Shown here: positions 25,545 through 29,676 of the stretch, one piece after another
Layout: each line of letters begins with the position of its first letter
Position numbering within the stretch: the first letter of the stretch is position 1
Notes under the pieces: model-generated
Told to the model about the DNA's origin: nothing
Seen by the model: the letters and a program-made list of their open reading frames with translations, nothing else
The model's database searches: none
Translations under genes and position numbers: made by a program
From: a virus
Taxonomy: Duplodnaviria > Heunggongvirae > Uroviricota > Caudoviricetes
IMG/VR virus record: IMGVR_UViG_2526164634_000026
Strand: one strand, 5' to 3'
Length of the DNA stretch: 30,934 bases

Positions 25545-26111
25545 GTCGTTTTCTATATGCGTTCGTTTCGCGGGGTGTTTTTTATACAGAGTTGACAGGG
25601 CCACATCGTAGATCAATGCAACCTGCTTGCGGGGGATTCCTTGTGCTAATAAACGCCCGGCCTGCTCCCATTCCGCTTTGGTTAGTTTAGGTGGTCGCCC
25701 ACCAATACGGCCTTTATTTCTGGCGGCAGCAAGTCCAGCCATCGTTCGCTCGATGATTAGTTCTCGTTCCATCTCAGCCAGGGCACCCATAACGTGGAAG
25801 AAAAAACGCCCCATTGGAGATGACGTATCAATACTGTCAGTAAGACTGCGAAAATTAATCCCTCGCTCTCGTAATTCCCCTACGAGAGAAATCAAATGTT
25901 TCATGCTTCGCCCGAGGCGATCCAGTTTCCAGACAACAAGTGTGTCACCTTTTTGAAGGCGCTTTAAAGCGCGTTTTAATCCAGGTCTGTCTGTCCTTGT
26001 TCCGCTTAATTTATCTTCAAATATTTGTTCACATCCTGCACAAACAAGAGCGTTTCGTTGCAGGTCTGTATTCTGGTCATTTGTTGATACCCTTACATAG
26101 CCAATCAGCAC
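25518..26111 (-). CDS. gin: Serine DNA invertase Gin (Gin/Pin/Hin/Cin family), GTG start
   Basis: 197-aa ORF MLIGYVRVSTNDQNTDLQRNALVCAGCEQIFEDKLSGTRTDRPGLKRALKRLQKGDTLVVWKLDRLGRS…; catalytic Ser in YVRVSTNDQ. Confidence 0.9.
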   Translation of the reverse strand: MLIGYVRVSTNDQNTDLQRNALVCAGCEQIFEDKLSGTRTDRPGLKRALKRLQKGDTLVVWKLDRLGRSMKHLISLVGELRERGINFRSLTDSIDTSSPMGRFFFHVMGALAEMERELIIERTMAGLAAARNKGRIGGRPPKLTKAEWEQAGRLLAQGIPRKQVALIYDVALSTLYKKHPAKRTHIENDDRINQIDR

Positions 26112-26190
26112 TCTGGATCTCCCGTTTAAAAGCGCAAATCATGCCATGCAGGCCGGAAACAGCCATTATCTAAAACCTCGGTTTACAGGA
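25772..26190. repeat. Left arm of about 420-bp inverted repeat (gix site plus the 5' half of gin)
   Basis: Reverse complement matches 29256-29676 at high identity. Confidence 0.75.
26165..26190. other. gix: gix-type recombination crossover site (left)
   Basis: TTATCTAAAACCTCGGTTTACAGGAA matches the Gin/Hin-family 26-bp site pattern. Confidence 0.75.
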
Positions 26191-26236
26191 AACGGTAAAC
26201 AAGGCTGGTAACGCTGTTCAAAAGACAGGCGATACC

Positions 26237-27217
26237 TTGTCCGGTGGACTTACTTTTGAAAACGACTCAATCCTTGCCTGGATTCGAAATACTGACTGGG
26301 CGAAGATTGGTTTTAAAAATGATGCCGACAGCGACACTGATTCATACATGTGGTTTGAAACAGGCGACAACGGCAATGAATATTTCAAATGGAGAAGCAA
26401 ACAAAGCACCACAACAAAAGACCTGATGAATCTTAAATGGGATGCTTTGTCTGTTCTTGTTAAAGCCCTTTTCAGCAGTGAAGTAAAAATATCGACAGTC
26501 AATGCACTGAGGATATTTAATTCATCTTTTGGTGCCATTTTTCGCCGTTCTGAAGAATGCCTGCATATCATCCCTACACGAGAGAACGAGGGAGAAAATG
26601 GTGATATAGGGCCACTACGCCCCTTTACGCTTAATCTCAGAACTGGTCGGATAAGCATGGGGCATGGTCTGGATGTTACAGGAGATATAACAACTAACGC
26701 CTGGGTTTATGCAAACAGGTTTGCTATTAACAGCAGTAATGGTATGTGGATTCAGATGCGCGATAACAACGCTATCTTTGGGAAAAATATAGTTAACACT
26801 GATAGCGCCCAGGCATTGCTACGTCAGGACCATGCTGATCGCAAATTTATGATTGGTGGTCTGGGTAATAAGCAATTTGGCATCTACATGATTAATAATT
26901 CAAGGACAGCCAATGGCACCGATGGTCAGGCGTACATGGATAATAACGGAAACTGGCTTTGCGGTGCGCAAGTTATTCCCGGCAACTATGGCAATTTTGA
27001 TTCCAGATATGTGAAAGATGTTCGACTTGGTTCACAGCAATATTATGGAGTGAACAACTGGCAAACATGGAATTTCCAGTGCCCGTCAGGTCATGTATTG
27101 TCTGGTATTAATGTTCAGGATACAGGGTCCAACTCTGCCGATAATATAGCGGGCGTTTATTACAGACCCGTTCAAAAGTATATAAATGGCACCTGGTATA
27201 ATGTAGCGAGCGTTTAA
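26237..27217 (+). CDS. Tail-fibre variable C-terminal exon A (S-variable type); frame open from 26198, no constant-part exon upstream
   Basis: 326-aa track ORF (TTG start); ends …[11 protein letters not shown]; in-frame stop at 26195-26197 just after gix. Confidence 0.65.
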
Positions 27218-27218
27218 T

Positions 27219-27746
27219 ATGATGCACTTAAAGAACATAAAAGCGGGTAACGCTAAAACACTGGAACAGTATGAGTTAACAAAGAAACACGGAGTTATCT
27301 GGCTTTACTCTGAGGACGGAAAAAACTGGTATGAGGAAGTGAAAAACTTTCAGCCAGACACAATAAAGATTGTTTACGATGCAAATAATATTATTGTCGC
27401 CATCACTAAAGATGCCTCCACGCTTAACCCTGAAGGTTTTAGCGTCGTTGAGGTTCCCGATATAACAGCCAACCGCCGCGCTGATGATTCAGGAAAGTGG
27501 ATGTTTAAGGATGGAGCTGTAGTTAAACGGATTTATACAGCAGACGAACAGCAACAACAGGCCGAATCACAAAAGGCCGTATTGCTTTCCGAAGCTGAAT
27601 CAGTCATCCAGCCGCTGGAACGCGCTGTCAGGCTGAATATGGCAACAGACGAGGAACGCACACGACTGGAAGCATGGGAACGCTACAGTGTTCTGGTCAG
27701 CCGTGTGGATACGGCAAATCCTGAATGGCCACAAAAGCCTGAATAA
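27219..27746 (+). CDS. Tail-fibre assembly chaperone (Mu U-type)
   Basis: 175-aa [43 protein letters not shown]…. Confidence 0.8.
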
Positions 27747-27751
27747 AAATT

Positions 27752-27771
27752 AAGGCCCGCTATCGGGCCTT
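27752..27771. terminator. Bidirectional hairpin between the convergent chaperone genes at the centre of the invertible segment
   Basis: 8-bp stem AAGGCCCG/CGGGCCTT, 4-nt loop, A/T runs on both sides. Confidence 0.55.
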
Positions 27772-27774
27772 GTC

Positions 27775-28308
27775 TCATTCAGGTTGTTCGGGAAATGTTA
27801 CTGGCAGGCTGGAGGTGTCTGTAGATTCGACTTTCTGCGCATAGAGCATCCACTCAGTTAATTTTTGTTTATTCTCGTCGGAAATGATGCCCAGCCGTAG
27901 CTGTGAGTCCCATAGCTGGGTTTTATCCCTGACAAGTTGCAACAGGCTTTGCTTTTCATTCTCTGCCTGCTGCCTCTGTTCCTCCTCGGTATAAGTTCGC
28001 TTTATCACTACGCCATCTTTGAACATCCATTTACCCGAAATATCAGCCCGGCGATTTGCTGTAATATCAGGAACCTCAACGACGCTTGCGCCTTCTGGAT
28101 TAATTGCTGAAACATCCTTTTCAATACAAATAATAACGTTGTTGTGGTCATAGACCATTTTCAACGTATCAGGCTGAAAGTTCTTTTGTTCCTCATACCA
28201 GTTTTTCCCATCCTCTGTATAAAGCCATTTGATGTTAAATTGTTTCGTTAGCTGGTATTGCTCTTTTGTTTTAGGATTGCCAGCAGTAATATTTTTTAAG
28301 TGCATCAT
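27775..28308 (-). CDS. Alternative tail-fibre assembly chaperone (Mu U'-type)
   Basis: 177-aa ORF; N-terminal about 100 aa closely similar to the chaperone at 27219, C-terminus diverged. Confidence 0.8.
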
Positions 28309-28310
28309 AA

Positions 28311-29054
28311 TTAAATACTCCCTGCGTTATACCACGTTCCATTAATGCAATACTGAATTGGCCTTGCCTGAGTTGTATCAATTAATTCATCACGGTTTCC
28401 GTTAACTGAACCAGTAACGACATAACCTGACCTGTCAGACCAGCCAGGACCATTCCATGTCTGAACAGATGACAGACCGCCAAGGCGAATACCTGTAATA
28501 AACCTTGAGTTACATTCTGCCTGCGTATATGCACCAACATCTCCCGCAGAGGGTTTGCGTGTTGTGGTGTAAAACTCTGACCAGTTAGCTTCAAAGCCAT
28601 AACCATCACGCGCTGAACGATAAAAGATACCGCCATTTCTGTAATTCACGCGGAACTGTACAGCAGGGCAACTCCCCGCATTCATATTAAAGTGGAGGAT
28701 TAATGTCGATGCGCCACTGATATCTGCATTATAAACGCCGCTATTCCAGTTCCATCCAACAGCTTTGTCATTTCCAACAGTGCTTCCTGTCTGCCCTAAA
28801 GCAAATGCAGGCTGCTGGTTTTTCGTGTTGTAGTCTCGTCGCCAGCCAGGAGCATAAGCATCACCATGATTAATATAGGTGAATTGAGCGTTAGTAATTC
28901 CGCCACCGCTGGATGTACTCGGCGTAGTAACGCGTATGGTCATTGCGCCGCGAGTGCCAATAACTTCCACCACAGCACCTGCAAGACAAATATTTCCGCA
29001 ACCTGTATCTGTAATGACCTTATTGTTTGCATAAGCCCATGAGCCTTTGCACAT
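28311..29054 (-). CDS. Tail-fibre variable C-terminal exon B (S'-variable type); frame open upstream to a stop inside gix (29274-29276)
   Basis: 247-aa track ORF; ends …[11 protein letters not shown] like exon A; hand translation shows the open frame continues to the gix site. Confidence 0.65.
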
Positions 29055-29255
29055 CCAGTAAGGATGGTTAAATGCCCCCTGACTCTCCAGCCACGAAATG
29101 AATTGTGCGGTTGTCCAGGTCTGACTATCGCCACCAATATTCAGCCATGCGCTATATGCGCGGCAGGCACCAATATTTTTGGTGAAGGTATCTTTTCCTG
29201 GAATATCTGCGCCGTTCTGTTTTTTCTGTAATGCACCAGAAGCCTGATTTACCGT

Positions 29256-29281
29256 TTCCTGTAAACCGAGGTTTTAGATAA
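29256..29281. other. gix: gix-type recombination crossover site (right, inverted)
   Basis: TTCCTGTAAACCGAGGTTTTAGATAA, inverted copy of the left site. Confidence 0.75.
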
Positions 29282-29676
29282 TGGCCGTTTCCGGCCTGCA
29301 TGGCATGATTTGCGCTTTTGGACGGGAGATTCAGTGTGCTGATTGGCTATGTAAGGGTATCAACAAATGACCAGAATACAGACCTGCAACGAAACGCTCT
29401 TGTTTGTGCAGGATGTGAACAGATATTTGAAGATAAATTAAGCGGGACAAAGACAGACCGACCGGGATTAAAACGCGCTTTAAAGCGCCTTCAAAAAGGT
29501 GACACGCTGGTTGTCTGGAAACTGGATCGCCTCGGGCGAAGCATGAAACATCTGACTTCTCTCGTCGGGGAACTACGGGAGCGAGGGATTAATTTTCGCA
29601 GTCTGACCGACAGCATAGATACATCTTCTCCAATGGGGCGTTTTTTCTTCCACGTGATGGGGGCCCTGGCTGAATG
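29256..29676. repeat. Right arm of about 420-bp inverted repeat
   Basis: Reverse complement of 25772-26190 with a few substitutions and small indels. Confidence 0.75.

Follow-up and report, generated by a model that had tools for sequence, protein, structure and literature searches.

The window (the whole stretch of DNA analysed here, 30,934 nt) ends 1 nt before the end of the 268-kb draft contig AIHD01000023.1, and its first 24.5 kb is collinear with closed genomes. Near the end of this collinear part lies the 5′ remnant of nu1, a lambdoid terminase small-subunit gene (24316-24510, + strand, 64-aa product), which is cut by the end of a Mu-like prophage; close relatives are collinear with the window to 24509, beyond which their gene runs on uninterrupted and encodes a 170-aa small subunit, and the same 64-aa product followed by mom, com and gin is found in at least six other assemblies. 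The right end of the Mu-like prophage (24508-26165, − strand) comprises the end sequence, mom (24589-25326), com (25247-25435), and gin_A (25518-26111) with its upstream region, and these genes give the Pfam matches Mom, Zn_ribbon_Com and Resolvase plus HTH_7. The element ends at 24507-24509 in nu1; the same end nucleotide is used at four other insertion sites and in other genomes abuts an SDR oxidoreductase gene, glpT and ydcO, and strain 12A carries two copies of the element. The window holds the right end, and the left end and the 5-bp target duplication lie outside it. Comparison with the Mu-like prophage of FDAARGOS_1059 gives a single mismatch over 24507-28068 and then 44 mismatches in 28069-29281. 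Judged by these matches, the left part (24508-28275) is the right end of a Mu-like (SfMu-type) transposable prophage (Muvirus) inside a lambdoid terminase gene.

The gin_A gene is intact and encodes a 197-aa invertase (− strand; PF00239, E 7e-50; PF02796, E 2e-17) that is identical to Mu Gin at 192 of the latter's 193 residues and has a four-residue C-terminal extension. Two identical 26-bp gix crossover sites, TTCCTGTAAACCGAGGTTTTAGATAA, each one base different from Mu gixR, lie in opposite orientation with the same central dinucleotide at 26166-26191 (−, adjoining gin_A) and 29256-29281 (+, adjoining a second invertase gene, gin_B), and no third site within six mismatches occurs in the whole window. 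Each gix is part of an inverted repeat arm (25774-26206 and 29241-29673) that also contains the upstream region and the 5′ 338 nt of the adjacent invertase gene, including on the left the stretch that holds the enhancer in Mu. The arms are 433 nt long, 94% complementary (27 mismatches, longest perfect run 86 bp) and 3034 nt apart; with gaps allowed the repeat extends to about 451 nt at 93.3%. Nucleotides 1-250 of gin, within which the recombinational enhancer (Fis sites) lies in Mu, match Mu gin at 247/250 positions in gin_A and 241/250 in gin_B. Given that both gix sites are perfect and inverted to each other, that gin_A is intact and that the putative enhancer region is Mu-like, the segment would be capable of inversion. 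Inversion by RecA through the long repeats, as proposed in the initial annotation, is possible but would be weak because the arms are 6% diverged and share so short a longest perfect run.

Between the gix sites is a 3.1-kb (3.09 kb) G-type cassette in which each variable tail-fibre exon has its own tail-fibre assembly chaperone: Sv (26174-27217, Pfam Gp34_trimer) and U (27219-27746, Caudo_TAP) on the + strand, and U′ (27775-28308, Caudo_TAP) and Sv′ (28311-29273) on the − strand; gp37_C scores slightly under its cut-off. The exact U protein stands in a canonical Mu-like context in 10/10 places among the matches listed. The Sv and Sv′ frames each stay open as far as the neighbouring gix, whose outer half supplies a TAA stop (26171-26173 and 29274-29276, respectively). 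The outer half of the gix next to gin_B is of the invertase-proximal type (TAA), as opposed to the constant-exon-proximal type (CAA) of Mu and the related locus L001. The initial annotation had described a Mu G-type Gin/gix switch with a 3.1-kb segment, inverted repeats of about 420 bp, an intact left gin, and two exons whose frames run open to the gix sites, stop there and are joined to no constant exon; all of this is borne out in the sequence as written, and the two exon-chaperone sets that it named are present but are convergent, with their 3′ ends meeting, and not head-to-head. Invertase genes occupy both flanks, and no constant 5′ tail-fibre exon reads through a gix in the deposited contig, a statement that holds for AIHD01000023.1 and not necessarily for the genome. 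In relatives with the other flip state Sv is joined to a constant exon, every parent-type locus examined has such an exon, and its absence here is probably an assembly effect.

The second invertase gene, gin_B (29336-29935, + strand), had been taken for a frameshifted copy of the 5′ half of the left gin. It is indeed frameshifted, but it is a full-length P88-type gene for a different invertase; its 3′ half has no relation to gin_A at the DNA level, and for that reason the repeat stops at 29673. The deposited gene keeps the resolvase domain (Pfam Resolvase) and loses the HTH to six 1-nt frameshifts, which are ±1 homopolymer indels confined to a low-quality patch of 137 bp (29672-29808) that starts within 1 nt of the end of the gin_A/gin_B similarity. 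These six indels are absent from every relative compared, and the homopolymer indel baseline of the same contig is 5 in 24.5 kb (about 1 per 5 kb). Once the six homopolymers are restored, gin_B differs by 2 aa from the intact 199-aa invertases of prophages L002 and L005, and its 5′ part has no synonymous and one non-synonymous difference from that of L010. Sequencing error is the most likely source of the gin_B frameshifts, the gene itself being intact but badly read.

Beyond gin_B lie genes for the P2-type tail protein gpU (29960-30454, − strand, Pfam Phage_P2_GpU) and the 3′ end of the P2-type tape-measure gene T (30461-30934, − strand), whose frame is open to the window end and which is cut by the contig end. 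The break inside T is accounted for by neither a misjoin nor a real join. The order cassette, invertase, gpU (−), T (−) is that of phage P88 and of prophages L002, L005, L009 and L010, and 26166-30934, gpU included, is collinear with P88 and with P2-like prophages. Differences from these relatives are 13-14 synonymous against 2 non-synonymous in gpU, and 3 synonymous and 1 non-synonymous in T (compared with L005). The closest relatives of the window's Sv′ are those of L009 and L010, at 98% overall with no mismatches in 28819-29218. By the same kind of comparison as on the left, the right part, from about 28276 to 30934, is P88-type P2-like prophage sequence.

These two flanks belong to different phages, but where does one parent give way to the other? 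The type-2 cassettes of Mu-like prophages are identical to the window as far as 28275 and differ from 28276 on, and within 28249-28276 the contig passes from the native cassette of the Mu-like prophage to one of P88 type. An independent assembly of the same locus, AAJX02000057.1, matches window positions 14319-28248 with one mismatch and three gaps, all left of 24550, and its contig ends at 28248, just short of the parent change; a stop at this place is what a fork between two copies of a repeat typically produces. Contig AIHB01000017.1 and a contig of GCA_025631665.1 have the same nu1::Mu junction in the flipped state, with a type-2 Sv′ beside gin_A that is 83% identical to the Sv′ of the window. 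The nu1::Mu prophage is thus seen in both flip states (Sv beside gin_A in AIHD and AAJX02, Sv′ beside gin_A in AIHB and GCA_025631665.1), and both states are also present among Mu-like and P88-like relatives. As these alignments place it, the parent change lies inside the cassette and not at gix, and the region is two different canonical switches spliced within a shared cassette.

The position of the change bears directly on how the two could have been joined. Recombination by Gin between a gix of the Mu-like prophage and a gix of the P88-like one would find identical 26-mers and an intact gin_A, and invertases of the Gin/Cin/Pin/Hin family cross-complement; such a crossover at gix would, however, keep one parent's whole cassette, and the parentage changes at about 28276, about 1 kb from gix, while the Mu-like cassette of the siblings holds another Sv′. 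Enhancer-dependent invertases, moreover, strongly prefer sites in one supercoiled domain, and we regard a real Gin-mediated join as very improbable. Equally little can be said for decay in place of a single locus, in which the constant exon gave way to an inverted duplicate of gix and the gin 5′ half, or for a silent store of tail-fibre cassettes handed on by recombination, the two interpretations that the initial annotation had suggested and that assume one locus evolving where it stands. The deposited sequence does have no constant exon at either gix and both frames closed. But gin_B, whose 3′ half is distinct and which still sits beside gpU and T as in P88-type prophages, is no duplicate of gin_A. 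A TAA that closes the frame is what the invertase-proximal gix normally carries in either parent family, and the arrangement, found in a single contig, shows no sign of selection for a store. Two spliced switches are not what decay in place would leave, the store is without support, and we consider either origin scarcely credible.

The two flanks occur together in 0/5,426 closed E. coli genomes (best coverage 84%) and in no phage record, and AIHD01000023.1 is the sole recorded source of the proteins from truncated gin_B, Sv′ (247 aa) and gpU. In other assemblies the same cassette is usually found on a contig of 2-5 kb, which means that it routinely breaks assemblies. The two parentages, the place where one replaces the other, the end of the contig 2.7 kb beyond that fork and the error-like indels are all observed at this locus. 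An assembly error at the repeat was the circumstance that the initial annotation had named against its own reading; in light of the fork so near the contig end, the indel patch and the break of AAJX02000057.1, we find such an error likely. The gin_A-cassette-gin_B join is, on this sequence evidence, probably a misjoin that runs through the repeated cassette near the terminus of a draft contig, and we infer that the assembler rather than the cell made it.

The region holds parts of two Gin-type host-range switches whose G cassettes are nearly identical. The first, in the Mu-like prophage in nu1 of the lambdoid prophage, normally reads mom-com-gin_A-gix-[Sv U U′ Sv′]-gix-Sc-baseplate, and the second, in the P88-type P2-like prophage, H(constant)-gix-[Sv U U′ Sv′]-gix-gin_B-gpU-T. 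Inversion in either switch is carried out by its invertase, aided by a predicted enhancer near the start of the invertase gene, at the two inverted gix sites; it joins the constant exon by turns to Sv (with U) or Sv′ (with U′), and the exon left beside the invertase is closed by a TAA that the outer half of the adjacent gix contains. The contig tracks the first switch from gin_A into the cassette and, at about 28249-28276, where the cassette copies cease to be identical, passes to the second and on through gin_B, gpU and T. If the join is a misjoin, each cassette would in the cell have kept its constant exon and both invertases would be intact, the gin_B frameshifts being homopolymer read errors.

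Several observations speak against a misjoin. The P88-like part has mostly synonymous differences from its relatives and intact gpU and T, as expected of real selected sequence and not noise. The assembler appears to have crossed other phage repeats of the 268-kb contig correctly, and so it may have had long-range evidence for the gin_A-gin_B join too. Prophages with kilobase-long stretches of identical DNA, furthermore, commonly recombine in E. coli. A real join could have arisen by RecA-type homologous recombination between the two prophages, lying in inverted orientation, through cassettes with as much as about 2 kb of identical sequence, inverting the chromosome segment between them. One product would be the gin_A-G-gin_B locus without a constant exon; in the reciprocal product a cassette would have the Sc exon of the Mu-like prophage on one side and the H exon of the P88-like prophage on the other. 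Each prophage would be broken in two and no longer viable, and the gin_A-G-gin_B cassette would still flip but express nothing. The parent change does lie within the homologous cassette at the end of an identical stretch, as homologous exchange predicts, and the P88-like flank is bona fide coding sequence. Cassettes also do pass among phage families: the exact U′ protein is present in Mu-like, P88-like and lambdoid prophage cassettes, and lambdoid prophage L035 has a cassette that was imported along with a 64-aa 5′ fragment of an invertase. Against this, the join is confined to a single draft contig, where it lies at the extreme end beside an error-like patch, siblings with the same Mu insertion keep the canonical cassette, none of the closed genomes has it, and with the present data it is indistinguishable from a misjoin. 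We therefore hold this exchange to be possible but rather unlikely. The same tentative standing applies to its outcome, in which a Mu-like by P2-like cassette crossover would have inverted the chromosome between the prophages and left a silent flippable cassette with two invertases here and, elsewhere in the genome, the reciprocal cassette bordered by constant tail-fibre exons from two unrelated phages. If that were true, one flip at the reciprocal cassette would swap the receptor-binding ends of both fibres in antiphase, and a transfer of a host-range cassette between phage families would have been caught in the act.

Multi-copy invertible phage cassettes are sites at which a draft assembly may either stop or fuse sequence from separate prophages, and an apparent pseudogene that shows several homopolymer frameshifts close to where a contig ends is not to be read as biology. 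A real join would be a single recombinant between two known systems and would involve no new mechanism; it would exemplify the established way in which Mu-like, P2-like, P1-like and lambdoid phages come to share tail-fibre cassettes. It would resemble the inversions by prophage-prophage recombination known in E. coli in its exchange through a shared kilobase-long identical stretch; those cases, unlike this join (0/5,426), rest on closed genomes.

The left part of the region resembles the G segment and Gin of Mu, whose G(+)/G(−) biology has been described (PMC4406740), in its mom-com-gin order, in gix sites one base from gixR, and in a 3.09 kb cassette with convergent Sv-U and U′-Sv′. The Shigella phage SfMu covers window positions 24605-29281 at 94%, and the left part of the region is collinear with it. 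The S gene of Mu and SfMu contains the far gix, beside Sc, whereas in the contig a second invertase gene follows that site. The Sv′ exon of the contig is not the one carried by the same prophage in sibling strains. Phage P88 and the P88-like (Xuanwuvirus, P2-family) prophages are collinear with 26162-30934 and have the cassette, gix and invertase followed by gpU and T on the opposite strand; over this stretch P88 is 92% identical and E. coli prophages are 96-98% identical. P88 differs in that its near gix lies in the tail-fibre gene H, in place of which the contig has the Mu-like gin_A side, and the P88-like relatives differ in that none has the six frameshifts of gin_B. The C segment and Cin of P1/P7, the P segment and Pin of e14, and Min of p15B belong to the same family of enhancer-dependent serine invertases and have homologous tail-fibre cassettes, with P7 and P1 matching the window cassette at 85-91%. 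P1 has inverted repeats of about 0.6 kb inside its segment and p15B has six crossover sites, as against only two in the window; a three-site relative was seen in L042. Both parent switches are ordinary, already well-known phage host-range switches.

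Draft contig AIHD01000023.1 (GCA_000250275.2, 267,897 bp) supplies the window, which spans its final 30.9 kb and stops 1 nt short of the contig end. It contains a 433-nt inverted repeat (25774-26206 and 29241-29673, 94% complementary), within which lie two identical 26-bp gix sites (TTCCTGTAAACCGAGGTTTTAGATAA, 26166-26191 and 29256-29281) that are one base off Mu gixR. Between these sites are the variable tail-fibre exon Sv (26174-27217) and its chaperone gene U (27219-27746) on the plus strand and U' (27775-28308) and Sv' (28311-29273) on the minus strand, so the two exon-chaperone sets are convergent and not "head-to-head" as the initial annotation had them. 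The left invertase gene, gin_A (25518-26111, minus strand), is intact and is followed by com and mom; its product is identical to Mu Gin at 192 of 193 positions over the length of Mu Gin. The right one, gin_B (29336-29935, plus strand), had been taken for a truncated copy of the left gene and is instead a full-length gene of another type. The remaining sequence observations (inverted repeat, two inverted gix sites, cassette, intact left gin, and a stop at gix) are indeed present.

The Sv and Sv' frames each stay open until they meet a TAA in the outer half-site of the adjoining gix (26171-26173 and 29274-29276). Comparison with two related loci (L001 and L023) shows that invertase-proximal and constant-exon-proximal gix sites differ by one outer-half-site base, which turns an in-frame CAA (Gln) into TAA; the silent exon is thus always closed at the crossover site, while the site stays recombination-competent. 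The mechanism is the one summarised for the Mu G switch (PMC4406740): the invertase recombines the inverted gix sites, which joins a constant exon outside the segment to Sv or Sv' with the matching chaperone co-expressed, and at the invertase side the TAA in gix keeps the parked exon closed. Were the deposited arrangement real, its perfect sites, intact Gin_A and putative enhancer regions at either end should still let the segment flip, and no fibre would be expressed. The earlier proposal that RecA could also flip it through the 433-nt repeat holds in principle, but such flipping should be inefficient because the repeat has 27 mismatches and its longest perfect run is 86 bp.

When positions 25400-30000 were searched against 5,426 closed E. 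coli genomes, the full arrangement was covered to 84% at best, and no phage record covered it to 80%. Two kinds of locus make up the closed-genome matches. Mu-like prophages, class A, have the order mom-com-gin-gix-G-gix-Sc-baseplate (L001 and L004, whose cassettes are in opposite flip states); P2-like prophages, class B, have the order H-gix-G-gix-invertase, with gpU and T following on the opposite strand (L002, L005, L009 and L010). Sc and H carry the constant part of the fibre. Exact look-up of the truncated gin_B, 247-aa Sv' and gpU products found this contig only in each case (a 164-aa gpU start variant is absent from the record). Exact look-ups of U and U' found many canonical contexts, with no second contig of the source assembly among the 10 places listed.

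The two parentages meet inside the cassette. Aligned to the FDAARGOS_1059 Mu-like prophage, positions 24507-28068 show a single mismatch and positions 28069-29281 show 44; Mu-like cassettes of a second type (L011, L016, L018 and L020) agree with the window at every base through 28275 and diverge from 28276; and from ~28800 to 29650 the window is near-identical to P2-like prophages L009 and L010. The parent switch, as judged from these alignments, thus lies in U', ~1 kb from gix. Its internal position argues against Gin-mediated exchange at gix; we rejected that origin as highly improbable. Between 28140 and 28791, U' and the C-terminal half of Sv' carry thirteen substitutions private to this contig among six aligned relatives, which may mark a separate receptor-binding allele or reflect a consensus mixed from two copies of the cassette.

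The left parent can be followed into its chromosomal setting. Positions 1-24509 are a lambdoid prophage adjoining ybhC, 99.96-100% identical to the closed genomes of E. coli O111:H2 strain 12A and FDAARGOS_1059. There the prophage runs on into an intact terminase small-subunit gene (nu1), and in the window this gene is interrupted at 24509 by the Mu-like prophage end; one prophage thus disrupts another within 24316-24600. The identical Mu-like element end elsewhere adjoins an SDR oxidoreductase gene, glpT and ydcO in other genomes, and strain 12A has two copies of the prophage. It looks like a mobile, transposable phage, and these different sites and the two copies in 12A suggest recent transposition. 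At least six further assemblies, AAJX02000057.1 and the sibling AIHB01000017.1 among them, likewise encode the 64-aa terminase remnant with mom-com-gin after it, so the junction is real and common to a lineage. It is absent from the closed genomes searched, and the lineage therefore has no closed reference.

Among these relatives, AIHB01000017.1 and a contig of GCA_025631665.1 are in the other flip state and have a type-2 Sv' next to gin_A, which shares only 83% identity with the Sv' of the window and 96.5% with the Sv' of the second Mu-like cassette type. That strains differ in flip state shows that the cassette of this prophage inverts, and the siblings' Sv' implies that the native cassette is Sv-U-U'-Sv' (type 2) and that the window's Sv' is foreign to the Mu-like prophage. 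AAJX02000057.1, an independent assembly, shows just four differences from the window over 14319-28248, each of them left of 24550, and stops at 28248, which is 28 nt short of where the two cassette types first differ. Stopping there is how an assembler behaves where two repeat copies fork; the AIHD contig, unlike AAJX02000057.1, carries on along the P88-type branch. In public assemblies exact U is found on 2-5 kb contigs in 62 of 125 blocks and exact U' in 419 of 930, the most frequent size in both cases, and the cassette is therefore a systematic breakpoint of short-read assemblies. We take the AIHx accessions to be the DEC diarrheagenic E. coli collection and AAJX to be strain B171; the source project presumably used pyrosequencing.

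The apparent decay of gin_B bears on the quality of this branch. Six indels of 1 nt, each in a homopolymer run (AAA to AA, TT to T, G5 to G6, AA to A, A4 to A3 and A to AA), set it apart from every intact relative; all fall within 137 bp (29672-29808), and this patch starts at most 1 nt from the point where gin_A/gin_B similarity ends. With the six runs restored, the product differs at 2 residues from an intact 199-aa invertase. Over 24.5 kb elsewhere in the contig, comparison with closed strain 12A gives 5 homopolymer indels, 3 of which are also contradicted by AAJX02; the patch exceeds this baseline density more than 200 times, and the presence of such indels elsewhere in the same contig makes miscalls a property of this assembly. 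These single-base length differences (16726, 16983 and 21590, also 16838 and 18537) are probably base-calling errors of the deposit that could give lambdoid genes spurious frameshifts; a tape-measure frameshift suspected from the ORF list was ruled out, as that frame is open to the window end. Natural decay of gin_B is unlikely given six homopolymer indels against ~3 substitutions in 137 bp and intact adjoining genes. We infer that the "pseudogene" is an intact gene badly read, in a stretch with thin or mixed read support. Beyond the patch the sequence is sound: the frames of gpU and of the 3' end of T are open, and they differ from relatives mostly synonymously.

The locus is therefore a composite of two canonical Gin/gix host-range switches, which meet in the cassette they share, 2.7 kb before the draft contig ends. 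The initial explanation, a switch decayed in place or a "cassette store", is contradicted by this two-parent structure and is barely credible. We lean towards an assembler misjoin through the repeated cassette, because the join occurs in a single contig, near its end and beside an error patch, and because the fork is where the independent assembly ends, the cassette in siblings is the canonical one and none of the closed genomes searched has the arrangement. A genuine homologous crossover between the two prophages is rather unlikely; it predicts the same sequence, so the present data do not separate the two. Were it true, the chromosome between the prophages would be inverted and a reciprocal cassette would be flanked by two constant exons.

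The same cassette is found in other contexts. In L035 (5024-9182), a Rac-like lambdoid prophage, it is fused to a long stf gene, and beside the far gix is a 64-aa 5' fragment of a gin-like gene, then a complete pin-type invertase gene on the opposite strand; gix and the 5' end of the invertase gene seem to have come in with the cassette. A chromosomal copy in L042 (OU349839.1, 4424-8115) adjoins an IncFII repA gene, carries a 500-bp duplicate of the 5' part of Sv besides a third gix-like site that is degenerate, and resembles the multiple-inversion (p15B Min-like) arrangement; a constant exon is not obvious at that locus. In the P88-type prophages (L002, L005, L010 and P88 itself, L021) the tail operon FI-FII-E-T-U comes right after the invertase, on the strand opposite to the baseplate and fibre genes, unlike canonical P2, where tail, baseplate and fibre genes are all on the same strand; the D gene beyond it is shortened in L005 and full length in L010. 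Every component of the locus is already known, and the genome itself probably lacks the unusual two-invertase bracket. Among isolated phages the parent types are Shigella phage SfMu, which matches 24605-29281 at 94%, and Escherichia phage P88, which matches 26162-30934 at 92%, and both have a constant tail-fibre exon in the place where Mu has its own.
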